Origin: a virus
Lineage: Duplodnaviria; Heunggongvirae; Uroviricota; Caudoviricetes
Virus record (IMG/VR): IMGVR_UViG_3300021387_000463
Span: 107,001-171,000 of that record
Strand: one strand, 5' to 3'
Length of the DNA: 64,000 bases
In this document: positions 3,602 to 63,840 of the stretch, one piece after another
Position numbering within the stretch: the stretch's first letter is position 1
Layout: every line of letters begins with the position of its first letter
Translations under genes and position numbers: made by a program
The notes under the pieces: generated by a model
The model's input: only the letters and a program-made list of their open reading frames with translations
Told to the model about the DNA's origin: nothing
Database searches by the model: none

Positions 3602-3694
3602 CGGAAGGTAACGGCAGTGGTCTGTAAAACCACCCTGCTTAACAAATTGTCGTAGTGGACTCGCAGTAAGGGGGTTCAAATCCCTCCCTTCCGA
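3602..3694 (+). tRNA. aberrant tRNA-like paralog of 3406 (D region too short, extra 36-nt segment)
   Basis: same acceptor cggaagg/ccttccg and T arm; gtggtctgtaaaaccac hairpin sits too close to the acceptor to be the anticodon arm. Confidence 0.3.
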
Positions 3695-3794: not shown

Positions 3795-3875
3795 CTAGGT
3801 GTAACTGGTAATAGGTTTCCAACTGCATTTGGAATGCAGGCGTAATGCATGGGGGTTCGAGTCCCTTCGCCTAGA
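3795..3875 (+). tRNA. tRNA-Pro(TGG)-like
   Basis: acceptor ctaggtg/cgcctag (one G-U); anticodon stem ctgca/tgcag with loop tttggaa; T arm ggggg/ttcgagt/ccctt. Confidence 0.45.
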
Positions 3876-3909
3876 CAAAAAGGAATCTTGCAGCAATAGG
3901 TAAGACATC

Positions 3910-3979
3910 AGACATGTAGCTCAATGGTTAGAGCCTTGGATTTTACCAAGAGATTAGGGTTCGACTCCCTACGTATCTT
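3910..3979 (+). tRNA. tRNA-like with 6-nt anticodon loop auuuua (UUU or UUA)
   Basis: canonical D arm ta-gctc-aatggtta-gagc and T arm taggg/ttcgact/cccta; anticodon stem cttgg/ccaag encloses only 6 nt; acceptor has 1 mismatch. Confidence 0.35.
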
Positions 3980-4007
3980 TGTTTAAAAGGATTCCGATTT
4001 TTAACAT

Positions 4008-4360: not shown

Positions 4361-4487
4361 GGAAACATACAGCAACTATTAAAGGTATAGCATTAAACTG
4401 ATAATTTAAGGGTCGTTGGTTCGAGTCCAACTCACGCTACCAAGGTTGGCGTGATAGCTAAGATGGATAGAATGTTTCCGATTTTTT
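4361..4487 (+). ncRNA. permuted/split tRNA-Ile(GAT) unit inside a TACAGCAA element
   Basis: 5' ggaaacatacagcaa (4361-4375); D-stem 3' strand tagc; anticodon arm ttaaa/ctgataa/tttaa; variable gggtc; T arm gttgg/ttcgagt/ccaac; acceptor 3' tcacgct-a-CCA (4431-4441); 5-nt linker aggtt; acceptor 5' ggcgtga (4447-4453) + ta + D-stem 5' gcta; 3' aatgtttcc gattttttt (4468-4487). No matching 5' acceptor upstream in normal order. Confidence 0.4.
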
Positions 4488-4616: not shown

Positions 4617-5600
4617 TTGGCTGATTTTTATGCGAGTTCGACTCTATATTATATAGAAATATGTAATTATATGGATGAATTAACAAAAAAAATCAGAGAA
4701 TTAAAATTTGAAAAGGGGTATTCAAATAGTCAAATTTCAAAAGAATTGGGAGTAACAATAGAAAAAGCAAAAAGAGTTACTTGTAAAAGATATGATGAAA
4801 CATTAAAAAAGAAGGAAATTAGAAAAAATGCTGAAAAAGAATTTGTTGATTTAGTAAAACGATATTTACCATTGTCTAATTCTTTAAATCATTTATGTAA
4901 CAATTTAGGGTTGAGAGGTGTAGACGGATATTATAAGAAACTAAAACGAATAATATCAGAATATAATCTATCTACTGAACATTTTGGTACTATTAAAATT
5001 AGCCGATTTGGTGTAGCTAGAAACAAAGTAACCGCAATGACGGACGAAGAATTTTTTGTAAAAGGTTCTAAACGTAGCGGAGACTCAATAATTAAAAGAT
5101 TAATTGAAGGTGAATATAAAGAATATAAATGTGAAAATTGTGGTATAAGTGAGTGGGATGGAAAACCATTGAGGCTGCAAGTCCACCATATAAACGGAGA
5201 CCATAACGACAATAGAGTTGAGAACATTCAGTTATTATGCCCAAATTGTCATGCACAAACTGACACATATGCAAGGCATAACACTACTAAGAATGGTGGG
5301 TTTGTTGTTAAAAACATTGAAGAGCTAAAAGATAGTATTAATTATGTCAAGCCAAAATATTGCAAAAAATGTGGCAAAGAAATAACTAATGGCAGTAATG
5401 AATATTGTTCTCATGAATGTGCTCAAAAAGCCTCTAGAAGATTTGAAGTATCATCAGCACAGTTGATAGAAGACTTCAAAGAACTTAAATCATTCACAGC
5501 AGTAGGTAGAAAATATAATGTTAGCGATAATGCAATAAGAAGAAGAGTTAAAAAACTTGGAGTATATGAAGAAGTAAGACAATTTATCACTCCAAGGTAA
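4617..5600 (+). CDS. HNH homing endonuclease with zinc ribbon and C-terminal HTH
   Basis: HHINGDHNDNRVENIQLLCPNCH HNH motif; CKKCGKEITNGSNEYCSHEC zinc ribbon; C-terminal YNVSDNAIRRRVKKLGV. Confidence 0.7.
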   Translation: MADFYASSTLYYIEICNYMDELTKKIRELKFEKGYSNSQISKELGVTIEKAKRVTCKRYDETLKKKEIRKNAEKEFVDLVKRYLPLSNSLNHLCNNLGLRGVDGYYKKLKRIISEYNLSTEHFGTIKISRFGVARNKVTAMTDEEFFVKGSKRSGDSIIKRLIEGEYKEYKCENCGISEWDGKPLRLQVHHINGDHNDNRVENIQLLCPNCHAQTDTYARHNTTKNGGFVVKNIEELKDSINYVKPKYCKKCGKEITNGSNEYCSHECAQKASRRFEVSSAQLIEDFKELKSFTAVGRKYNVSDNAIRRRVKKLGVYEEVRQFITPR

Positions 5601-7403: not shown

Positions 7404-7476
7404 CTTTTGAAAATAATTTGTCTTTCGAGACACATTTTTTGCTCTTTTGAAATATTTATATGTAAAGAGCTATATT

Positions 7477-8169
7477 ATGGAAATTGATATAAAAAGTGTT
7501 TTAGATAAATCAAAAACAATAAGTGATATTGCTAGAATAATTTTTGGAAAGCCTAACTATACAAACAGAGAAAAATGCAAAAAAATTCTTTCTGAGTATG
7601 GAATTGATTGGGAAAAATGGTTAGAAGAAAAAAAGATTAAGCCTAAGAAGTTTTGTCTTAATTGTGGGAAGGAAATAATTAATGGCGATTCTAGAAAAAA
7701 ATTTTGCAATTCATCTTGTGCAGCATCTTATAACAATTTAGGTATCGCTAGAAACTATAAAGGTGGTAAGAGAAAGGATGAAAAATCTTATTGCTTAAAC
7801 TGTGGTAAAGAAATAAAACGAGGTAAATTTTGTAATAATACTTGTCGTGCAGAATATAATGCAAAACAATATATTGAACGTTGGAAAAGAGGTGAAGAAA
7901 GTGGGTTAAAGGGTAAGTATGGCATTGCTTCTGCTGTTAGGCATTATATTTTTGAGAAAAACGAAAACAAATGTGAAATTTGTGGAAAAAGTTATGTAAA
8001 TCCGTATACTGGGTTGTCTGTTCTTCAAATTCATCATAAGGATGGCGATTGTACAAATAATAGAGAGGAAAACTTACAGTTATTATGTCCAACACATCAT
8101 GCAATGACCGAGAATTTTGGCAGTAGAAATCCAAATGCCACAAGAAAGGATAATAGAATGAGATATTAA
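7477..8169 (+). CDS. HNH homing endonuclease with two zinc ribbons
   Basis: HHKDGDCTNNREENLQLLCPTHH; CLNCGKEIINGDSRKKFCNSSC and CLNCGKEIKRGKFCNNTC; start moved to the internal Met after the promoter-like region. Confidence 0.65.
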   Translation: MEIDIKSVLDKSKTISDIARIIFGKPNYTNREKCKKILSEYGIDWEKWLEEKKIKPKKFCLNCGKEIINGDSRKKFCNSSCAASYNNLGIARNYKGGKRKDEKSYCLNCGKEIKRGKFCNNTCRAEYNAKQYIERWKRGEESGLKGKYGIASAVRHYIFEKNENKCEICGKSYVNPYTGLSVLQIHHKDGDCTNNREENLQLLCPTHHAMTENFGSRNPNATRKDNRMRY

Positions 8170-9550: not shown

Positions 9551-9730
9551 ATGGGAAGAATACTTTTTATATTGTTTGTGGCTTTTGTAATGGTGGTTGT
9601 AATCATGTTGATTAACAACTATCTCAACAAGAGAAATGGGAATAGAATGTCAAAGGAAGAGAAGAGAAAGTCTTTCAACGATGACATCGAGGCAGTAGCC
9701 AAGGAAATTAAAATGAGAAGAGAAGCATGA
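9551..9730 (+). CDS. small membrane protein (59 aa)
   Basis: ATG 26 nt after the -7 box; hydrophobic N-terminus ILFILFVAFVMVVVIML; overlaps the next ORF by ATGA. Confidence 0.45.
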   Translation: MGRILFILFVAFVMVVVIMLINNYLNKRNGNRMSKEEKRKSFNDDIEAVAKEIKMRREA

Positions 9731-10014
9731 TGTGGTATTTTATAATTGGATTCTTTGTTCTCATTACGATAGTATTCATGATACTGTTGTTACGTGAGAT
9801 TAAGAATGCCCCATTGGTTCCAGATACAATGCCTTTCTTAAGAGGTGATTACGTTCCAACTGGAGAAGAGTATTTCAAATACTTTAATACCTTCTGCAAG
9901 AATTGCAAATTCTTTGATGGAACTGCTACATGTTTGGCAGAACATAGTTTTGGTATCATTAATGAGCATAACACAAACACATGCAAAACAGAAAGTTTGT
10001 TTGAGCCGAAGTAA
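9727..10014 (+). CDS. small membrane protein (95 aa), Cys-rich C-terminus
   Basis: ORF; TM helix FIIGFFVLITIVFMILLL. Confidence 0.5.
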   Translation: MMWYFIIGFFVLITIVFMILLLREIKNAPLVPDTMPFLRGDYVPTGEEYFKYFNTFCKNCKFFDGTATCLAEHSFGIINEHNTNTCKTESLFEPK

Positions 10015-12981: not shown

Positions 12982-13069
12982 GTTTGGATGGCCGAGTGGT
13001 TTAAGGCAGCAGGCTGTTAACCTGCCGTGTGGTTTCGCTACACCATAGGTTCGAATCCTACTCCAAACG
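12982..13069 (+). tRNA. type-II tRNA (Ser/Tyr-like D arm, long variable arm) with anticodon GTT
   Basis: D arm tg-gcc-gagtggtttaa-ggc; anticodon stem gcagg/cctgc with loop ctgttaa; variable hairpin gtgt...acac; acceptor gtttgga/tccaaac. Confidence 0.4.
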
Positions 13070-13075
13070 CAATTA

Positions 13076-14735: not shown

Positions 14736-14861
14736 AACGAATTTAAATATTAAATAAGCATATGAGAATGGTTAAAGTCATAAAACGTAAAAAGCGAAAG
14801 TAACGCTCTATAAGTTTCAACCACGTTGAGCTTCGAGCGTTATAGAAAGATACAAACAAAT

Positions 14862-14933
14862 GCGCTTGTAGCTTAGTGGTAGAGCACGTGTCTCTTAAAC
14901 ATGGGGTCAAGGGTTCGAATCCCTTCAGGCGCA
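14862..14933 (+). tRNA. tRNA-Lys(CTT)
   Basis: anticodon stem cgtgt/acatg with loop ctcttaa; acceptor gcgcttg/caggcgc. Confidence 0.55.
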
Positions 14934-14966
14934 CACTAATGTATATATGTATCTTACATGCAATTT

Positions 14967-15039
14967 GCGCCCATAGCTCAGTTGGTAGAGTACATGACTT
15001 TTAATCTTGGGGTCGAGGGTTCGAGTCCCTCTGGGCGTA
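14967..15039 (+). tRNA. tRNA-Lys(TTT)
   Basis: loop cttttaa; ta-gctc-agttggta-gagt D arm; acceptor gcgccca/tgggcgt. Confidence 0.6.
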
Positions 15040-15051
15040 CTGATTTTCTAA

Positions 15052-15141
15052 CCTCCGTTAGTTCATCGGTGAGTGCTCGAAAGAGACGAGAACACTAGTC
15101 TTTTAAACTAGGTGTGGTTGGTTCGACTCCAACACGGAGGA
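15052..15141 (+). tRNA. tRNA-Lys(TTT) variant with 25-nt D-loop containing an extra hairpin
   Basis: perfect acceptor cctccgt/acggagg; D stem gttc/gaac encloses atcggtgagtg-ctcg-aaagaga-cgag; anticodon stem ctagt/actag with loop cttttaa; T arm gttgg/ttcgact/ccaac. Confidence 0.5.
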
Positions 15142-15153
15142 CATTTTTCATAT

Positions 15154-15225
15154 GCTCCTATGGCAGAAGGGATTATGCACCAGACTCTTAATCTGGCTAT
15201 CAAGGTTCGAGTCCTTGTGGGAGTA
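15154..15225 (+). tRNA. tRNA-Lys(CTT)-like second copy
   Basis: anticodon stem ccaga/tctgg with loop ctcttaa; T arm caagg/ttcgagt/ccttg. Confidence 0.45.
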
Positions 15226-15246
15226 CCAATTTTAAAATGTTACGAA

Positions 15247-15951: not shown

Positions 15952-16088
15952 GGGTACACACAGCAAGTATAAATTTACACTTCAAACAGACTGTCAATTT
16001 GTGTAACGTGGGTTCGATTCCCACCCCCTCCGCAAAGAGAATTAAATAAACTGGAGGGGTTGAAATGTTGGTTTTATGTACCCTTTTA
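15952..16088 (+). ncRNA. permuted/split tRNA-Asp(GTC) unit inside a TACAGCAA element
   Basis: 5' gggtacacacagcaa (15952-15966); D-stem 3' strand ttca; anticodon arm acaga/ctgtcaa/tttgt; T arm gtggg/ttcgatt/cccac; acceptor 3' cccctcc-g (16025-16032); 20-nt linker; acceptor 5' ggagggg (16053-16059) + D-stem 5' tgaa; complementary tgtaccc (16076-16082) + ttttat. Confidence 0.4.
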
Positions 16089-16166: not shown

Positions 16167-16293
16167 GGTGACGTAGCTCAGTCGGTAGAGCACTAAAAAA
16201 TCAACGTGTTGCCTCGTGTGCGCAACCCACAGCAAATATTATGATGAATGGCTGTTAACCAAGGGGTCTGTGGTTCGAGTCCACACGTCACCG
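16167..16293 (+). tRNA. oversized tRNA-like gene (127 nt) with ~75-nt insertion after the D arm
   Basis: perfect acceptor ggtgacg/cgtcacc; canonical D arm ta-gctc-agtcggta-gagc and T arm tgtgg/ttcgagt/ccaca; insertion carries gcgcaac-CCACAGCAA and gctgttaacc. Confidence 0.35.
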
Positions 16294-18006: not shown

Positions 18007-18669
18007 ATGATAGCTGCTTTTGATACATATTATTATAATGGATATTCTTATACTGTAGCTGGAGTATTTAAGTCATGGAATGATAAAGATATTGCTTACT
18101 ATGCTACTAGTAAGAGGATGTGTATTGACGCAGAATACAAACCAGGAGAACTATATAAGCGTGAGCTTCCATGCATTATGCAATGTTTGGCATTATTACC
18201 ACTTAAGGATATTACGCTTATTATGGTAGATGGTTTTGTATGGCTTTCTGAGGATGGTAAAACCTTAACGAAGGGTTTGGGTGCTCACCTTCAAGATGCA
18301 ATCTTTAAGAAATATGGTGAGAAAATTACTGTTGTTGGTGTCGCAAAGAACAGATACCATGTAAATATACCAGATTGCTATGATATAGAGCGTGGTTTGG
18401 AATCAGCAAAGCCATTGTTTGTAACATGTAGTGAACACTGTCTTGCAGAACATTATTCAAACATGGTCAAGATTATGTATGGTGATTATAGAATACCAAA
18501 AATCTTGAAAGATGTAGACACTAGGACAAGAGAACTTGGGCATGAACATTCTGAGGAGATAGAAGCAGAACTTGAAAAAGAATATAACTCCAAACCCATA
18601 GATATATCAATTGGTGATTTTGATGAATTTATGGCAACTTGTGAAAAAAATGGTTTTAAATATAGATAG
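18007..18669 (+). CDS. nfi: endonuclease V (deoxyinosine 3' endonuclease; also cuts inosine-containing RNA)
   Basis: RELP, MVDGFVW, GLGAHL and VVGVAKNR align with E. coli Nfi blocks REYP, FVDGHGI, GVASHFG and IGVAKKR. Confidence 0.6.
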   Translation: MIAAFDTYYYNGYSYTVAGVFKSWNDKDIAYYATSKRMCIDAEYKPGELYKRELPCIMQCLALLPLKDITLIMVDGFVWLSEDGKTLTKGLGAHLQDAIFKKYGEKITVVGVAKNRYHVNIPDCYDIERGLESAKPLFVTCSEHCLAEHYSNMVKIMYGDYRIPKILKDVDTRTRELGHEHSEEIEAELEKEYNSKPIDISIGDFDEFMATCEKNGFKYR

Positions 18670-21088: not shown

Positions 21089-21230
21089 GGAAACAGACAG
21101 CAATGGTTATTTTTTTAATAAGCCTTGTAAGCAGTGGGTCATGGGTTCGAATCCCATCGAGGGGTGTAAGCTCCTTGTAGCTCAGTCTGGTCTAGAGCAA
21201 CTTAAAATGTTAAAAACGTTTCCGATTTTT
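21089..21230 (+). ncRNA. permuted/split tRNA-like unit inside a TACAGCAA element
   Basis: 5' ggaaacagacagcaa; T arm atggg/ttcgaat/cccat; acceptor 3' cgagggg-t; 5-nt linker gtaag; acceptor 5' ctccttg (all 7 pair, 2 G-U) + complete D arm ta-gctc-agtctggtcta-gagc; 3' acgtttcc gattttt. Confidence 0.35.
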
Positions 21231-23088: not shown

Positions 23089-23332
23089 TGAAAAAAAGTT
23101 CCTAAAAAATTTGGAATTCTCGAAAATTATCTATATCTTTGCAAAGTGAAAAGAAATAAATGAGGAAACTAACAGCAAACATTTAAACATCAAACTGTAA
23201 ATTTGAACAACGTTTAAAAAGTTTCCGTTTTATTATATAACATAGCGGCAGAGTGAAACAGATTACACGCTAGGCTCATAACCTAGAAACACCAAGTGCG
23301 ACTCTTGCGTGCCGCCACTTGATTTGGAAGAT

Positions 23333-23617: not shown

Positions 23618-24440
23618 AACATTGTAGGCTTCGGCTGAAAATGAGGAGTTTGGCTAGCTTTCGTAGCCAAATGAAGGATAATCCAGTGATGGGACTAAAT
23701 GTGATGTGAAATTGACCATAGTAGCATTGCAGATATGTAGGGGCAACCCTATGTATTTCACTGAAAAGCATATGGCACGGTCTACGCTGGGGGTAACACC
23801 CTAGGCGTAGGTTCTCAAGGGCTGAATGTCTTTGAGTGAGTGGTAACACAATAGATTGCCATATGGAACTCGATGCAATAGTCACCAGTTGGCGTGTTGG
23901 GTTCAGTTATATGCTAGTCTCAAGTTGAAATGCTTGAGAACCGTAAGGCTGATAGTATGTAATAGCAATTGGACTTGTGGTGAGTCTTTGTAGGGAGGCG
24001 ATTTCGTGGGTCGTGCTCAAAAGGCACGAATGCGATGGGTCGCACCTCGTCTTCCAATGGTCGTGCAAATTTCCAAAATTTGATTTGAAATATGGTTCAA
24101 ATGTTTATTTAGCAAAAGTGTGCGACACTAGGCAGCTAAAATGCACTTATCCTTCTGCAATATGAAGGGGTTGGGGACTCGCAAGGAATCCAACAAGAGA
24201 GTAAAAGTACTCGTCTGAGTCAACAGGAGGCATCCTGTGAATCCGCAAGAGCTTGGCGAAGAACTGAAATCTATGATGCTGTACCGAAAGGTTTAAACTA
24301 GTAAGTGTTTGGTTGTTTTCGCAAAACCTCCGTGCATGGTGTCTACGGCTATCGTAAGGTAGCGTGTGAACAGCAACGTCCAACCGTTGTGAAATGACAT
24401 CTACAACAAGACAATGTTCTCAGTCTTTTGTTTTTACATA

Positions 24441-24564
24441 GGGAGTTAGCTTAATGGTCAGAGTAATTTTGTTGCGATTTAAGCTACAACACAGTCTCGA
24501 CTTCGGAACAGATTGATGCTTTAACTGATAATGAAAAAATGGTGGTTCGAGTCCATCACTCCCT
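24441..24564 (+). tRNA. oversized tRNA-like gene (124 nt)
   Basis: acceptor gggagtt/cactccc (6/7); T arm ggtgg/ttcgagt/ccatc; body contains ctgataa (Ile-type loop) and a UUCG hairpin. Confidence 0.3.
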
Positions 24565-24725
24565 GCGTACCGTTTTGGGGCACTTTTTGAGTAAACAAAG
24601 TGTTAAACTTTGGCACTAGATAGCTACTAGGTGTTATGGGTTGGAAAGTTTGAATCCCTTGGGGGTTTGTAGAATGTAATGTTTTTAACCAACTGTTTTT
24701 GATACGGCTTAATATTTAATTATAT

Positions 24726-27141: not shown

Positions 27142-27226
27142 GGGCATATGGCTGAGTGGTCGATAGCGGCAGTCTCTAAAACTGTTATGGCGAAAGTCAT
27201 CGTGGGTTCGAATCCTACTATGCTCA
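27142..27226 (+). tRNA. amber suppressor tRNA, anticodon CTA, type II (Ser/Leu/Tyr-like body)
   Basis: acceptor gggcata/tatgctc all paired; D arm tg-gctg-agtggtcgata-gcgg; anticodon stem gcagt/actgt with loop ctctaaa at the expected position; long variable arm; T arm gtggg/ttcgaat/cctac. Confidence 0.5.
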
Positions 27227-27454
27227 CTACGGCTGGTGTATCCATAGTGGATGCTGAAATAAGTGAGACAGCGCAAGCCATGTAAGAAGTGGCAGATGAA
27301 GCAGCAATGCGGTGCGAGGATTAGTCCCTTGCCCTAGTTCCTTGATGGTTAAGAGGATACCTTCATGGTTGATACAGGTAAACCTAATTTACTATTATGA
27401 TAGAATATCTCAAAAAATTAGAAGCAACGATGTGCAAGCATAAATGGGAGGATT

Positions 27455-40148: not shown

Positions 40149-40234
40149 TGGCGAGGTGCCAGAGTGGACAATTGGGGCACTCTCATAAGGTGTTAGTTTC
40201 GGCTACCGTTGGTTCGAATCCAACCCTCGCTACC
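40149..40234 (+). tRNA. type-II tRNA with anticodon CAT and encoded CCA
   Basis: acceptor ggcgagg/cctcgct; D arm tg-cca-gagtggacaat-tgg; anticodon stem gcact/ggtgt with loop ctcataa; variable arm; T arm gttgg/ttcgaat/ccaac; a-cca. Confidence 0.4.
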
Positions 40235-40235
40235 A

Positions 40236-57186: not shown

Positions 57187-58581
57187 ATGGAAATATTCAA
57201 AGACGAAAGAATAAAGAAAGTCTTAGCGAAGATTCAGAATGCCATTAAACTGACTGCCTTTGAGGGGCATGTTTATGTGGTTGGTGGTGCGGTGAGAGAC
57301 GCACTGTTGAACCTTCCAGTCAAGGACTTGGATTTCGTGGTAGAGATACCTAATGGTGGAGTAATGCTTGCCCATCTTCTTGCTTCAAAGGAGAAGTGTT
57401 ATGTGATGGGTAAGAATCCAGTAATATTCGAGACCTATGGTACTGCAAAGCTGAATCTCTTTAAGGATGAAGACCTCAAAGACTTTGACCTTGAATTCGT
57501 TCAGACTAGAAAGGAGCAGTATCACAAGGAGAGCAGAAACCCAGATACAGTGTTTGGTTCAATCGAGGAAGATGCAGCACGTAGGGACTTAACCATTAAC
57601 TCATTGTACTACAATGTTACTGATGGTAAGTTGTACGATTTCAACCAAGGTGTTGATGACTTGGTTAACCAAGTGATTAAGACCCCAACTGACCCAGATG
57701 TTATCTTTGACGATGACCCACTACGTATCTTGAGAGTTATCAGATTCTCTTGCAGATATGGCTGGGGTATCGAGAAGAACACTTGGTTGGGCATGGTTAA
57801 GAATGCACATCGTATCAAGATTATCTCACAAGAGAGAATCACTGATGAGATTTCCAAGATTATAACTGGTCCAAACGCTTCTGTTGGTATCCGCAAGATG
57901 TTGTTCTGTGGCATCTTGAATAGGGTAATGCCAGACATCTACGACTTAACCAACGCATATGAATCAAAGAATCCAATGCTTACCTCATTTGACCACACAA
58001 TGTTAGTTCTTGATAAGGTACAGCCTTATATTGAGAATAGACTTGCTGCATTGTTTCATGATGTAGGTAGAATCGCAACTGAGGGAAATAGGGGTATCTC
58101 TCAAGATTCATTCAGTGCTGATGTTGCTAGCTGTGACTTGAAAGCGATGAAATTCCCAAAGAATATTATCAATTCTGTTGAGAACGCAATCAAATATCAC
58201 AGATTCTTCAGAAACTACGCTGATGGCACTGTTCCACCAGACAAGAAGATAAGAAAGTTTATCAACGAGTGTGGTGACAACATTGGAAACGTGGTTGACT
58301 TGATGAATGCTAACAACTTGTATCAGACCTACGATAAGAAGAAGAGACAAGTATTGGATATTCTGAATAGAATTGAAGAGCTAGATGAGCTTGAAGAGGC
58401 TAAGAACGTTAAGCTGCCTATCGATGGAAAAGATTTAATGGCAGAATTTAATCTTAAAAGTGGCCCTCAGATTGGTATACTCATGGAACACTTGAAAGAG
58501 GCTTATTTCGAGAATCCGAAGATTACCAAGGAAGAGTGCTTCAAGTTGGTTGAGGATAAGATTAAAGTCTTGGCAGTCTAA
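57187..58581 (+). CDS. cca: CCA-adding enzyme (tRNA nucleotidyltransferase, class II) with HD domain
   Basis: VVGGAVRDALLNLPVKDLDFVV head-domain motif; RDLTINSLYY; HD motif LFHDVGR. Confidence 0.7.
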   Translation: MEIFKDERIKKVLAKIQNAIKLTAFEGHVYVVGGAVRDALLNLPVKDLDFVVEIPNGGVMLAHLLASKEKCYVMGKNPVIFETYGTAKLNLFKDEDLKDFDLEFVQTRKEQYHKESRNPDTVFGSIEEDAARRDLTINSLYYNVTDGKLYDFNQGVDDLVNQVIKTPTDPDVIFDDDPLRILRVIRFSCRYGWGIEKNTWLGMVKNAHRIKIISQERITDEISKIITGPNASVGIRKMLFCGILNRVMPDIYDLTNAYESKNPMLTSFDHTMLVLDKVQPYIENRLAALFHDVGRIATEGNRGISQDSFSADVASCDLKAMKFPKNIINSVENAIKYHRFFRNYADGTVPPDKKIRKFINECGDNIGNVVDLMNANNLYQTYDKKKRQVLDILNRIEELDELEEAKNVKLPIDGKDLMAEFNLKSGPQIGILMEHLKEAYFENPKITKEECFKLVEDKIKVLAV

Positions 58582-60515: not shown

Positions 60516-60992
60516 ATGGAGAAATTGACGATAGATGTATTCAGACATTTTAGGTTTTTCTTGAAAAAGAATAAACAGTATGACTTGTTCATGCGAAATT
60601 TCAGAAGACAGCCATTTCAGATTTATCACGTATTTGATTCGAAGATTCCGAATTACATACAGATAATGATGAAAGATTCTGTAGATGGGATTGGAAATCG
60701 ATACTTCAAGGAATTCGGTGCAATGCATCTTATCTTTAGGTCATTTAATTGGTCTGGAGATTGTTGCACAACCAAAACAAATTCGAAGCATTGGGCTACG
60801 GTTGGTCTTAAATGGGCGTTATATTGCATAAGGCATAACATCGACATATGCACAGATGAACGGCTTGGGAGACTTATAGAGTATTGGAATTCTAATGGAT
60901 GGATTAATATTAGCAAGCTATCCTTTGAAGATAAAATAATAGTAAATCAGTTAAAACGAAAATATAATAATTATGGGGTTACAAGTGTATGA
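60516..60992 (+). CDS. hypothetical protein (158 aa)
   Basis: promoter-like tcgtatctttaca upstream. Confidence 0.5.
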   Translation: MEKLTIDVFRHFRFFLKKNKQYDLFMRNFRRQPFQIYHVFDSKIPNYIQIMMKDSVDGIGNRYFKEFGAMHLIFRSFNWSGDCCTTKTNSKHWATVGLKWALYCIRHNIDICTDERLGRLIEYWNSNGWINISKLSFEDKIIVNQLKRKYNNYGVTSV

Positions 60993-61908
60993 TAAGATTG
61001 ATACAATCTATAAAAGATACCAGTTTGATGGTAAGGATTGTCCAAATAAGGATTGGTTAAAGTTCAAGAATAAGATTATTCTTGGTGAGTTCTCAAACAA
61101 GGAGGCTGAGTATCTGTTCAACTGTCTTTGGGAAGCATATAGTAAGTTAGACGGAACAAACTCTAAAATTGCATTCTTCCCCTCAACTAGTGAGATTCGT
61201 GTTGAGGGTAAGACCGAGAAAGCTCAGTCACAGCATGGACAGTTCGAAATGCTTGAGAAGATTGGTGAGCGTATCAAGCCACAGCTTTGCGCAATGTTCC
61301 CAAAGGAGTCAGCAAGGTTTGCTCCAGTTAAAGAGGGAAATAAGGTTCAGTATTATGCAACTAGGGTTGAGTATGCAACGGCATTTAATCCTATAGTTGA
61401 TTTTAAAAAGGCAGAACCTACTGCCAATGGATTGTATGGTGTTCAGCTAGAGGAAGTTCCTATATACATCTACGGTGAGTATTTCGGTACTGGTATTCAG
61501 AAGTATGGTTCTCGCTACATTCAGAATGGTAACGGTTTCCGTGTATTCGACATTAAACAGCAAGGTTGGTGGTTGCCAAAGGAGAATCGTGATGCAATGT
61601 GCAAAGGTCTTGGTCTTGAGACTGTGCCTTTCTTGGGTGTTATGACCTTGCGTGACATTGAGGATATGGTACGTAAGGGCTTCACTACCAAGTTTGAGGG
61701 AGCTGCTGACCCAACAATGCTTGAGGAGGGTATTGTAGCACGTCCCATCATTCCTCTTTACAGTGGCAATGGTAGTTCCACTCGTGTCATCGTTAAGGTG
61801 AAGTACTGTGATTACGTTGAGTATGATGCTGTACGCAAACAATTCTCTGATAAGGAGTTCACTGAGTTCGACACTTGGTATCATGAGAATATCGAAAGTA
61901 AAAAATAA
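60973..61908 (+). CDS. RNA ligase (Rnl2-like ATP-dependent nucleotidyltransferase)
   Basis: motif I KLDGTN (adenylylation lysine, cf. T4 Rnl2 KIHGTN); motif IV-like EEGIVARP; motif V-like RVIVKVKY. Confidence 0.55.
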   Translation: MGLQVYDKIDTIYKRYQFDGKDCPNKDWLKFKNKIILGEFSNKEAEYLFNCLWEAYSKLDGTNSKIAFFPSTSEIRVEGKTEKAQSQHGQFEMLEKIGERIKPQLCAMFPKESARFAPVKEGNKVQYYATRVEYATAFNPIVDFKKAEPTANGLYGVQLEEVPIYIYGEYFGTGIQKYGSRYIQNGNGFRVFDIKQQGWWLPKENRDAMCKGLGLETVPFLGVMTLRDIEDMVRKGFTTKFEGAADPTMLEEGIVARPIIPLYSGNGSSTRVIVKVKYCDYVEYDAVRKQFSDKEFTEFDTWYHENIESKK

Positions 61909-62646: not shown

Positions 62647-63840
62647 ATGATTTATAGTATACTCGATTCAGACCTCTATAAATTTACGATGTCTAATGCT
62701 TATTTTCAGTTGTATCCTGATGCTGAAGGTACGTTTGCTTTTAATGACCGTAACAATGAGGTTTATGACAAGAAGTTCTTGGAAATGCTTCAATTAGAGT
62801 TCGCTCGTCTTTGTGAACTTAAGTTGACAACGGAAGAGTACATGTATGTGTCTCAGATTCGTTTTTTAGCAACCAACTACACTGAGTGGTTGAAGAACTT
62901 TAAGTTTGAGTTTGACAAGATTAAGTTCTGGCTCGATGACGAGGGACATCTTCACATTGAGGTAACTGACAAGATGTATAAGGTAACTCTTTACGAAGTA
63001 CCTATCCTTGCCACAGTTGCCGAGTGTCGTAACAAGTGGCTTGGTGTACACATTGATAATGCAAGGGTGATTGAAATCCTCGATAAGAAGATTGACTTTG
63101 CCAATGAGCATCAGTTGTATTTCTCTGAATTCGGTACAAGACGTAGAGCTTCTGCTGCAAGTCATGACCTCATTGTAAGACGTTTGAAGGAGCGTTGCCC
63201 AATCTATTGCGTTGGTACATCCAATGTGTATTTGGCAATGAAGTATAACATGATGCCTAGTGGAACTTGCGCACATGAGTGGATTATGTTCCACGCTGGT
63301 ATTGGCGGTTTTAAGACTGCTAACCTCACAGCCCTTAACGATTGGATTAAGGTGTATCAAGGTGACTTGGGTATTTCGTTGATTGATACCTATACCACAG
63401 CTTCATATCTCCACACACTTACGCTTAAGCAAGCTAAGTTGCTTGATGGCTTCCGTCAAGACAGTGGTGATGAATACCGCATCGGTAACATGATTATCGA
63501 TAAGCTGCATGAAATGCGCATCGACCCAACAAGCAAGACCATTGTCTTCAGCAATGCGCTTAACTTTGAGAAGTATGCTGAGATTGCTCGTTACTTTAAG
63601 GGACGCATCAAGGTATCCGCTGGTATTGGTACAAACCTTACTTGTGACCTTGGTATTGATGGCTACAAGCCAGCCAATATCGTGATGAAACTCGCTAAAT
63701 GCCGTTACAGTCCTCGTGATTTCTGGGAGTATGTCATCAAGATTTCCGATGACCTTGGAAAGCACATGGGTCGTAAAGACCTATTCGACATTGCTGCCAA
63801 GGAGTTGCACTTTGAAGAGCTTGGTGTTAAAGTAAATTAA
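62647..63840 (+). CDS. pncB: nicotinate phosphoribosyltransferase (NAPRTase, PncB-like)
   Basis: N-terminal ILDSDLYKFTM and C-terminal SAGIGTNLTCD are NAPRTase family hallmarks. Confidence 0.6.
   Translation: MIYSILDSDLYKFTMSNAYFQLYPDAEGTFAFNDRNNEVYDKKFLEMLQLEFARLCELKLTTEEYMYVSQIRFLATNYTEWLKNFKFEFDKIKFWLDDEGHLHIEVTDKMYKVTLYEVPILATVAECRNKWLGVHIDNARVIEILDKKIDFANEHQLYFSEFGTRRRASAASHDLIVRRLKERCPIYCVGTSNVYLAMKYNMMPSGTCAHEWIMFHAGIGGFKTANLTALNDWIKVYQGDLGISLIDTYTTASYLHTLTLKQAKLLDGFRQDSGDEYRIGNMIIDKLHEMRIDPTSKTIVFSNALNFEKYAEIARYFKGRIKVSAGIGTNLTCDLGIDGYKPANIVMKLAKCRYSPRDFWEYVIKISDDLGKHMGRKDLFDIAAKELHFEELGVKVN

Follow-up and report, generated by a model that had tools for sequence, protein, structure and literature searches.

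The window analysed here is a stretch of 64,000 nucleotides from a virus of the Caudoviricetes (IMG/VR virus record IMGVR_UViG_3300021387_000463, positions 107,001 to 171,000), and all coordinates given below are counted from its first letter unless a relative is named. Positions 15052-15141 of the window hold a colinear gene of the tRNA-Lys(UUU) type, whose cloverleaf is standard except for a short helix that rises from the D-loop. Judged by comparison with its relatives, this hairpin-bearing gene is real and conserved: in an alignment of 42 distinct sequences, 94.5% of the alignment cells are paired, and double-sided changes are found at 18 of the 27 pairs. This pattern points to a tRNA-Lys-like RNA that is very probably maintained by selection together with its D-loop hairpin.

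A tRNA-Lys(UUU) gene with a helix in its D-loop

The cloverleaf of 15052-15141, as parsed from the window sequence, consists of the following parts, where "family" stands for the 42 aligned sequences.

15052-15058, + strand: 5′ strand of the acceptor stem, CCTCCGT, with 7/7 pairs to ACGGAGG at 15134-15140 (pairs 1-7/85-91 of the family)
15059-15060, + strand: connector U8 and A9, with U8 at 15059 (T8 constant, 42/42 sequences)
15061-15064, + strand: 5′ strand of the D stem, GTTC, with 4/4 Watson-Crick pairs to GAAC at 15090-15093
15065-15072, + strand: 5′ part of the D-loop, ATCGGTGA, with A14, G18G19 (15068-69) and the hypervariable position 20a (15071)
15073-15087, + strand: inserted hairpin, CUC 15076-78 with GAG 15083-85 and a GAAA tetraloop at 15079-82; outer pairs as predicted by RNAalifold
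15088-15089, + strand: 3′ part of the D-loop, G followed by A (A21 equivalent; the A of column 40 is invariant)
15090-15093, + strand: 3′ strand of the D stem, GAAC, from the window sequence and the pairing in the family
15094, + strand: A26, from the window sequence
15095-15111, + strand: anticodon arm CTAGT-CTTTTAA-ACTAG, anticodon UUU at 15102-15104
15112-15116, + strand: variable loop GTGTG, of class I length, from the window sequence
15117-15133, + strand: T arm GTTGG-TTCGACT-CCAAC, 99.5% paired in the family
15134-15141, + strand: acceptor-stem 3′ strand, ACGGAGG, and discriminator A73 (15141); CCA is not encoded

A preliminary description of this DNA had reported a perfect 7-bp acceptor stem, an anticodon arm and a T arm, as well as a D stem gttc/gaac enclosing a 25-nt loop; these elements are present in the window sequence, and the canonical stems covary in the family. 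The anticodon arm possesses a 5-bp stem and a 7-nt loop with U33 and a purine at position 37, while the T arm contains a 5-bp stem, the G53-C61 pair and a loop of the TTCRANY type. It is the D arm that departs from the norm of a 3-4-bp stem and a 7-11-nt loop, since the GTTC/GAAC stem spans a D-loop of 25 nt (15065-89) with an internal hairpin. U8, A14 and G18G19, constant in the 42 sequences, are available for the predicted tertiary contacts.

Standard tools misread this gene. The Rfam model RF00005 matches it partially with 20.1 bits, below the gathering threshold of 29, and the gene is missing from a scan at that threshold; folded as a single sequence it does not differ significantly from its shuffles (z = -1.03). 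ARAGORN outputs a tRNA-Ser(aga) at 15052-15142 by taking the inner hairpin as the anticodon arm. Because the single-sequence fold is not significant and the tools misread the gene, its reality has been judged by comparison with its relatives.

Taken at face value, the ARAGORN output would make the gene a class II tRNA-Ser(AGA) with CTAGT-CTTTTAA-ACTAG as its long variable arm, a reading that the comparative data contradict and whose chance we consider to be practically nil. It puts an A at position 33 of its anticodon loop, and its anticodon shifts from one relative to the next, so that the same program names the homologues Ser, Val(gac), Ala(ggc) or Asn(gtt), or does not call them; for this reason the call is regarded as an artefact. 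The conserved loop of the inner hairpin is a 4-nt GNRA loop rather than one of 7 nt, and the CUUUUAA arm is invariant in its loop while its stem covaries at 5/5 pairs.

Other tRNAs with unusual arms resemble the gene in part. Class II tRNAs (Ser, Leu, bacterial Tyr) likewise project a fifth helical arm from the core in a manner compatible with translation, but the arm of the Lys gene emerges from the D-loop, between 20a and A21, and not between the anticodon and T arms; its variable loop measures 4-5 nt, and its identity is that of Lys. The tRNA-Sec and the allo-tRNAs also possess an enlarged, non-standard D arm, by which dedicated proteins recognise them (PMC7609411). In tRNA-Sec, however, a 6-bp D stem carries a 4-nt loop and the branch is 8/5 or 9/4 (13-bp acceptor/T), whereas the hairpin-bearing tRNA-Lys keeps the 7/5 branch, a 3-4-bp D stem and G18G19, and carries a separate hairpin off the loop. 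A Sec-like D arm was rejected on the 7/5 branch and because the long continuous UCG/CGA D helix lacks support from covariation.

Covariation in related phages and the register of the hairpin

BLAST searches for near and distant relatives among deposited phage genomes returned generic tRNA matches and no relative at the DNA level; relatives were reached through an open reading frame (ORF) downstream of the Lys cluster and lie on uncultivated viral contigs. Four scans were carried out, namely two pattern scans of viral contigs (one of them anticodon-free), one of metagenome contigs and one of 185,579 species genomes. A covariance model was built from 40 distinct scan sequences, and the pairing statistics were derived from the model-guided alignment; a MAFFT alignment was dropped for a gap misplaced in the anticodon loop. 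Some of the search patterns fixed the anticodon loop, so that its constancy is partly imposed; the anticodon-free scan recovered UUU alone. The family found in this way inhabits phage contigs of ~90-410 kb and rumen metagenomes, and the sole match in the species genomes is a 410-kb phage contig binned as RUG343 (a rumen metagenome-assembled genome, MAG; scaffold_25).

With the covariance model, the 42 distinct members score 84-112 bits, against at most 55.6 bits for all ordinary tRNAs of the same loci. None of 500 shuffles matches the observed paired fraction or covariation score, and in a control in which the pairing partners are slid, pairing falls to 36-45%. The acceptor stem is 99% paired with double changes at 6/7 pairs, the anticodon stem is 100% paired with double changes at 5/5 pairs, and the T stem has double changes at 3/5 pairs; the 15 acceptor, 17 anticodon-stem and 10 T-stem variants are nearly all paired. 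Constant throughout are the T loop TTCGACT and A73 (42/42), along with U8, A14 and G18G19, while the anticodon loop reads CTTTTAA in 41/42 members and CTCTTAA in one paralogue (CUU). Lysine identity depends on the anticodon triplet and A73 (PMC9976931), and both are retained in the family (UUU in 41/42, A73 in 42/42). With the four standard stems covarying around them, the earlier assignment as a tRNA-Lys(UUU) with a structured D-loop arm is borne out.

Gene size is nearly constant at 89-91 nt, and 41/42 variants keep the insert although their acceptor and anticodon stems differ widely. When all collected loci were scanned without a motif, expansion of the D region turned up in Lys genes only, 41 of them UUU and one the CUU paralogue. 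This Lys(CUU) gene (positions 568-656 of locus L014, the same as 2549-2637 of L160) stands in tandem to the UUU form and shares its D-loop hairpin architecture; its hairpin is an unbroken 6-bp helix with a GAGA loop and a base different from that of the UUU form.

The conserved element of the D-loop is of the CUC-GAAA-GAG type, with three Watson-Crick pairs under a tetraloop. Its stem occurs as CTC/GAG, CTG/CAG, CTA/TAG and GAG/CTG, which are compensatory changes: the closing pair 28-33 is GC in 32 sequences, CG in 6 and AU in 3, pair 27-34 is UA in 40 and AU in 1, and pair 26-35 is CG in 37. The loop is GAAA in 25 sequences, GAGA in 10, GCAA in 3 and GUGA in 1. A GNRA cap is thereby present in 39/42 members; of the other three, two have the loops GAAG and UAAA and one has a shortened insert.

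By alignment, the hairpin lies between position 20a and A21, after G18G19; it starts 3-5 nt past G19 and ends 1-2 nt ahead of the D-stem strand. Position 20a (column 20) is free (A27, C7, G4, T4), and the flanks of the D-loop, ATCGGT and A21′ as well as AUCGGU-N-AGU and C37′, do not vary, in contrast to the stems. Two modelled pairs, U15074-A15086 and G15073-C15087, probably extend the hairpin at its base, with G15075 bulged. In the family, RNAalifold joins G and U of the invariant 'AGU' to the C and R on the 3′ side, with one or two bases bulged; this extended register has the best mean energy, and two alternative registers are possible.

A structured hairpin in the D-loop had been correctly recognised in the preliminary description, but its register, ctcg-aaagaga-cgag, had not. 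The pairing of ctcg (15076-79) with cgag (15087-90) uses G15090, with which the D-stem strand gaac also begins, and this register pairs 58% of the family cells, a value equal to that of shuffles, so that it was rejected. The same fate befell two helices suggested by minimum free energy (MFE) folding: the MFE helix UCG/CGA, which would bury G18 in a long continuous D helix, is unsupported by covariation and disrupted in 7 members, and a 'GGUAA/UUAYC' arm, the MFE structure of some relatives, was set aside because column 20 drifts between A, C, G and T without compensation. Inspection by eye for kink-turn and sarcin-ricin-like motifs at the base of the hairpin gave no fit.

For the D stem itself, two 3′ strands compete for G10-N13. 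The distal strand is GAAC in the window and TTAC or TTAT in most relatives; the proximal strand is the invariant AGU (15072-74) plus the next base and would leave a normal 8-nt D-loop. We consider the distal stem likely, and more so for the window's own sequence, where it forms 4/4 pairs and has the better energy. Pair 12:42 of the distal stem varies as AU34/UA7/GU1, the switch from GTAT/TTAC to GTTC/GAAC amounts to four coordinated substitutions, and the Lys(CUU) paralogue keeps the distal strand and loses the proximal one. The proximal AGU stem, which fits 4/4 but weakly in most relatives, is disfavoured for the GTAT-type relatives as well, because it is broken in the window's clade (U-U at 12:23), has no double change and is lost in the CUU paralogue. 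The D stem is nevertheless weak and ambiguous, and several findings count against the distal pairing: most relatives form 3/4 of its pairs, with a U-U at 13:22; the proximal stem is 92% paired across the family and has the better energy in several relatives; and the distal stem is 79% paired in the family, with RNAalifold predicting neither stem. In light of this last prediction, the D stem of the family may be bistable.

The Lys cluster and possible roles of the helix

The window is a one-strand gene array with ~37% GC, for which ARAGORN lists 43 tRNA genes and a transfer-messenger RNA (tmRNA). Given that relatives of the hairpin gene lie on viral contigs of up to 412 kb, and one of them inside the rumen MAG RUG343, the setting is that of a huge phage carrying its own tRNA island. 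The features of the window that bear on the role of the gene, followed by two further ORFs, are these.

14862-14934, + strand: tRNA-Lys(CUU), first gene of the Lys cluster (ARAGORN, Rfam)
14967-15039, + strand: canonical tRNA-Lys(UUU) (ARAGORN; Rfam 68.3 bits)
15154-15226, + strand: second tRNA-Lys(CUU), 12 nt downstream of the hairpin gene (ARAGORN, Rfam)
57187-58581, + strand: CCA-adding enzyme / tRNA nucleotidyltransferase ORF (Pfam PolyA_pol, 2.5e-25; tRNA_NucTran2_2), of interest as CCA is not encoded in the tRNA genes
60973-61908, + strand: RNA ligase ORF (Pfam PF09414 RNA_ligase, 1.7e-15), with tRNA repair or joining as its potential role
18007-18669: endonuclease V-like ORF
62647-63840: NAPRTase ORF

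The hairpin gene is thus the third of four Lys genes, in the order Lys(CUU), Lys(UUU), hairpin Lys(UUU), Lys(CUU), with spacers of 12-32 nt; the order recurs in relatives, and a promoter/terminator scan, in itself uninformative, showed no terminator within the cluster. The normal tRNA-Lys(UUU) noted earlier just upstream is present at 14967-15039, at a distance of 12 nt instead of the 13 nt then given. No amino acid is used more often in the ORFs of the window than Lys (9.1% of codons), AAG being the commonest codon and AAA the fifth.

Structural variation among close relatives has a hotspot in the Lys cluster. In locus L003, one of these relatives, the place of the hairpin gene (9655-9975) is taken by a truncated Lys(CUU), an aberrant Lys(UUU) that lacks the GG of the D-loop and the TTC of the T-loop, and a Lys(CUU) with a hairpin in its variable region. 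One Lys gene of this locus has a CTAGT-CTTTTAA-ACTAG arm identical to that of the hairpin gene of the window, which suggests that modules are exchanged between Lys genes. GNRA-capped hairpins of the variable region (CUG-GAAA-CGG, GUGA-GUAA-UCAC) also occur in the Lys(CUU) genes of L003, L004 and L005, and a conserved long-range hairpin, GTAACGCTC...GAGCGTTA, lies just 5′ of the cluster at 14800-14848 and is present in L003 too.

tRNA-Lys(UUU) is a target of the nuclease PrrC, and phage tRNAs with changes in the anticodon loop reportedly evade anticodon nucleases. It is also cut by AriB of the PARIS system, from which phage T5 escapes with a variant tRNA-Lys (PMC11464382), and by a bacterial Schlafen (PMC13056530). 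On account of the Lys codon usage, the diversified Lys cluster and this nuclease targeting, we rank first the reading that the gene specifies a working Lys decoder with a body unlike that of the host tRNA-Lys, which would evade defence nucleases. As a whole we advance this reading tentatively, at somewhat less than even chances. Its first part, a functional Lys decoder, is probable in view of the conserved identity elements and stems; its weakest step, namely that defence evasion is the reason for the hairpin, appears doubtful.

Under this favoured reading, very large rumen phages of one clade, equipped with a near-complete tRNA set of their own, encode the hairpin Lys(UUU), in which the ~15-nt helix between 20a and A21 would leave A14 and G18G19 free for the usual elbow contacts. 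The RNA would be excised from the transcript of the Lys-tRNA cluster, receive its CCA afterwards, possibly from the CCA-adding enzyme of the phage, and be charged by LysRS via the anticodon and A73. The hairpin, presumably retained in the mature RNA, would project like a class II variable arm during decoding of AAA/AAG on the ribosome, and the altered body might cause host nucleases directed at tRNA-Lys to bind or cut poorly. The diversified Lys cluster, the RNA ligase and the CCA-adding enzyme form an arms-race context. The T5 tRNA-Lys that neutralises PARIS offers the closest comparison, as it is likewise a phage Lys(UUU) tRNA unlike that of the host and part of a large phage tRNA set (PMC11464382). 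However, T5 and the other variants that evade anticodon nucleases carry point substitutions in the anticodon stem-loop, whereas here the loop is canonical and the D-loop has gained an insertion.

Apart from the ambiguous D stem, several observations weigh against the favoured reading. The characterised nucleases read the anticodon stem-loop (PMC11464382), which is canonical in this tRNA, so that an addition to the D-loop is no obvious shield. The hairpin gene may also be dispensable, given that a canonical Lys(UUU) adjoins it in ~24/42 loci; it is absent from the close relative L003, and in L075 the insert has shrunk. The Rfam score of 20.1 bits, below threshold, counts on the same side. In favour of use as a decoder, in four loci (L013, L018, L058 and L075) no canonical Lys(UUU) is seen in the 11-13 kb available, with 10-18 tRNAs each, which represent part of the genome.

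The presence of a canonical neighbour, together with the partly decayed hairpin of L075 and the lack of the gene in L003, would suit a tolerated insertion without a function of its own: a short palindrome in the length-tolerant D-loop, of which only compact variants are harmless and which would thereby give rise to the same covariation. Its site is the naturally variable 20a/20b, and other class I tRNAs of the same phages have mini-hairpins in their variable region. Yet a useless insert of 15 nt should vanish quickly by simple deletion, and what is seen is a near-constant size in 41/42 variants on very different stems, invariant flanks, and a Lys(CUU) paralogue that keeps the architecture on a different hairpin base. 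We regard this explanation as unlikely.

Neither more nor less unlikely, in our view, is a role of the hairpin as a docking element. Its GNRA loop could pack on a helix of the tRNA itself, with the T stem's invariant G52G53/C61C62 end as one candidate, bracing the elbow and making folding independent of host modifications. Alternatively, one of the phage's proteins, such as its CCA-adding enzyme or RNA ligase, an enzyme of tRNA modification or a dedicated synthetase, could use the hairpin as a handle, which would mark the tRNA as the phage's own. The GNRA pattern holds in 39/42 sequences while its N and R drift (GAAA, GAGA, GCAA, GUGA), the AUCGGU-N-AGU flank and C37′ are fixed despite variable stems, and the phage encodes both a CCA-adding enzyme and an RNA ligase. 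Engineered aptamer-tagged tRNAs accept a small added hairpin as a protein-recruiting handle and keep their function in translation (PMC7590224); these are artificial, with the graft on the variable arm, whereas the phage Lys hairpin is natural and sits in the D-loop. On the other hand, a GNRA loop may simply stabilise a 3-bp stem, two loops (GAAG, UAAA) and one shortened insert break the pattern, and both the receptor and the partner protein are putative.

Very unlikely, and the least probable among these alternatives, is a decoy acting outside translation, in which the Lys anticodon arm would sequester a host nuclease or sensor. A canonical, invariant anticodon stem-loop within a cluster of diversified Lys variants is what such a decoy might look like, but selection keeps the acceptor, A73, the T arm, U8, A14 and G18G19, that is, the full set for processing, charging and use by the ribosome, and some loci show no other Lys(UUU) gene.

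Permuted tRNAs, other unusual tRNAs and what the hairpin gene would mean

Two circularly permuted tRNA genes were parsed by eye from the window sequence. In the tRNA-Ile(GAU) unit (4361-4479), the 3′ half precedes the 5′ half: the helix strand GGAAACAT and ACAGCAA are followed by the 3′ half (from the D-stem strand TAGC to the acceptor, with CCA encoded), a 5-nt linker, the 5′ half up to the D-loop after G18G19, the strand ATGTTTCC and a U-run, so that the unit is clamped by the helix GGAAACAT/ATGTTTCC. The tRNA-Asp(GUC) unit (15952-16083) has the same layout, with the helix GGGTACA/TGTACCC, then ACAGCAA, and a break in the D-loop after G18G19. As stated in the preliminary description, both are opened in the part of the D-loop from which the Lys hairpin emerges.

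The related origin proposed there, with the helix closed in Lys and open in Ile and Asp, finds no such backing. The helix of the permuted units, which carry a conserved ACAGCAA motif, is of a different type (GGAAAC/GTTTCC) and shares no sequence similarity with the Lys hairpin; its distance to the D-stem strand is 21-23 nt, as against 1-2 nt in the hairpin Lys. It belongs to a module, GGRAWC-NNN-CAGCAR, with 14 sites on the + strand of the window against 1.4 expected (among them 2412, 3882, 4361, 5976, 8723, 21089, 23164, 40237 and 45335), which is usually matched 70-130 nt downstream by the complementary strand and a U-run and is also present in relatives; no Rfam family matches it. The module encloses permuted tRNAs, an odd whole tRNA (3882-3996), lone T-arm hairpins or nothing tRNA-like (23164-23235), and since it recurs around non-permuted and tRNA-free units, and in view of the missing similarity and the different spacing, a common origin is unsupported. 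A resemblance between GGAGACAGAC of the Lys hairpin and GGAAACAGAC of the module in some relatives is short, at chance level and concerns unlike structural roles.

The permuted genes bear on a further reading, to which we would give a slim chance: the hairpin as a processing element, either removed like an intron to leave a tRNA of normal size, or the closed counterpart of the Ile/Asp helix in a maturation pathway with RNA ligase. The shared part of the D-loop with its clamping helices, the RNA ligase gene and insertions of 55-65 nt in other tRNAs of the window fit such a pathway. The Lys gene is colinear and hence not circularly permuted, however, and the lack of similarity to the GGAAAC...ACAGCAA module and the difference in spacing apply here as well. 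A group I/II intron was rejected, as the insert of ~15 nt is far below the hundreds of nt of such introns, lies in the D-loop rather than at 37/38 and matches no Rfam intron family. Archaeal non-canonical introns, split tRNAs and the permuted genes of Cyanidioschyzon merolae and Thermofilum pendens are similar in being disrupted away from 37/38, including the D arm (PMC4033280). They are bounded by bulge-helix-bulge motifs and removed by an endonuclease, whereas the Lys gene is bacterial/phage and colinear, and around 15073-15088 the sequence allows no bulge-helix-bulge, with its 4-bp helix between two bulges of 3 nt, to be drawn. We know of no such splicing endonuclease in bacteria or phages.

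A broader reading would combine the Lys hairpin and the permuted genes: the D-loop helix could be a modular add-on of this phage clade, closed by a GNRA loop in Lys and presenting open paired ends in the permuted Ile and Asp tRNAs, which would be two-piece molecules or be sealed by RNA ligase. Such tRNAs would share a non-host body, be matured by the RNA ligase and CCA-adding enzyme of the phage and be invisible to host defences directed at tRNAs. We consider this quite improbable.

The window contains further unusual tRNAs. About 20 T-arm motifs lie outside the ARAGORN calls, two of which parse as the permuted genes; others (GTTCRANYC with a paired stem) are at 3674, 6035, 8363, 8659, 10104, 10153, 12486, 13138, 21064, 21145, 25074, 33186, 40122 and 40318. 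The unit 21089-21215 has a complete 5′ half with a D arm and is seemingly opened in the anticodon loop. At 16167-16293 and 24440-24565, Rfam aligns tRNAs with insertions of ~55-65 nt in the region of the anticodon arm, neither of which is called by ARAGORN; the former insertion includes an ACAGCAA motif. Normally class I tRNAs carry extra hairpins in the variable region at 1254-1340, 3795-3876, 12982-13070 and 40150-40235, the isoacceptors being Glu(UUC), Pro(UGG), Asn(GUU) and Met(CAU), and several of these hairpins have UUCG- or GNRA-like caps. The tRNA-like element at 3910-3979 (ARAGORN tRNA-?(tt)) has a 6-nt anticodon loop, ATTTTA, and lies inside the module GGAATC/GGATTCC. A class II-shaped tRNA with the anticodon CUA at 27142-27227, named 'Pyl' by ARAGORN, is a putative amber suppressor; since TAG is the stop of 7/33 long ORFs of the window, recoding is not obvious. 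HNH or DUF559 endonuclease ORFs are found among the tRNAs (1525-2400, 4617-5600, 7447-8169), and other ORFs related to NAD salvage are cytidylyltransferase-like, NUDIX and isochorismatase-family.

Reviews describe bacterial tRNA genes as uniform in structure (PMC4033280; PMC11551756), the former naming group I/II introns at 37/38 as the exception, and a review of non-canonical natural tRNAs includes no D-loop hairpin (PMC7609411). The literature, with subscription journals mostly uncovered, yielded no precedent for a natural tRNA with a D-loop hairpin or for permuted phage tRNAs, which is weak evidence of absence. Within this limited coverage, the D-loop-hairpin tRNA-Lys appears to be a shape not previously described among natural bacterial and phage tRNAs.

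If it is functional, this conserved five-arm tRNA would widen the range of shapes known to be accepted by RNase P, LysRS, EF-Tu and the ribosome, and the D-loop helix would be a natural site for grafting handles onto tRNAs. Were the reading of the D-loop helix as a modular add-on true, these phages would possess a partly orthogonal translation toolkit. The mislabelling of such genes as Ser, Val, Ala or Asn by ARAGORN and the sub-threshold Rfam score of the gene in the window imply that censuses of phage tRNAs, and inferences on codon coverage drawn from them, are biased. As antiphage nucleases repeatedly target tRNA-Lys(UUU), the family offers a test of whether changes in the body of a tRNA, beyond its anticodon loop, may confer escape.

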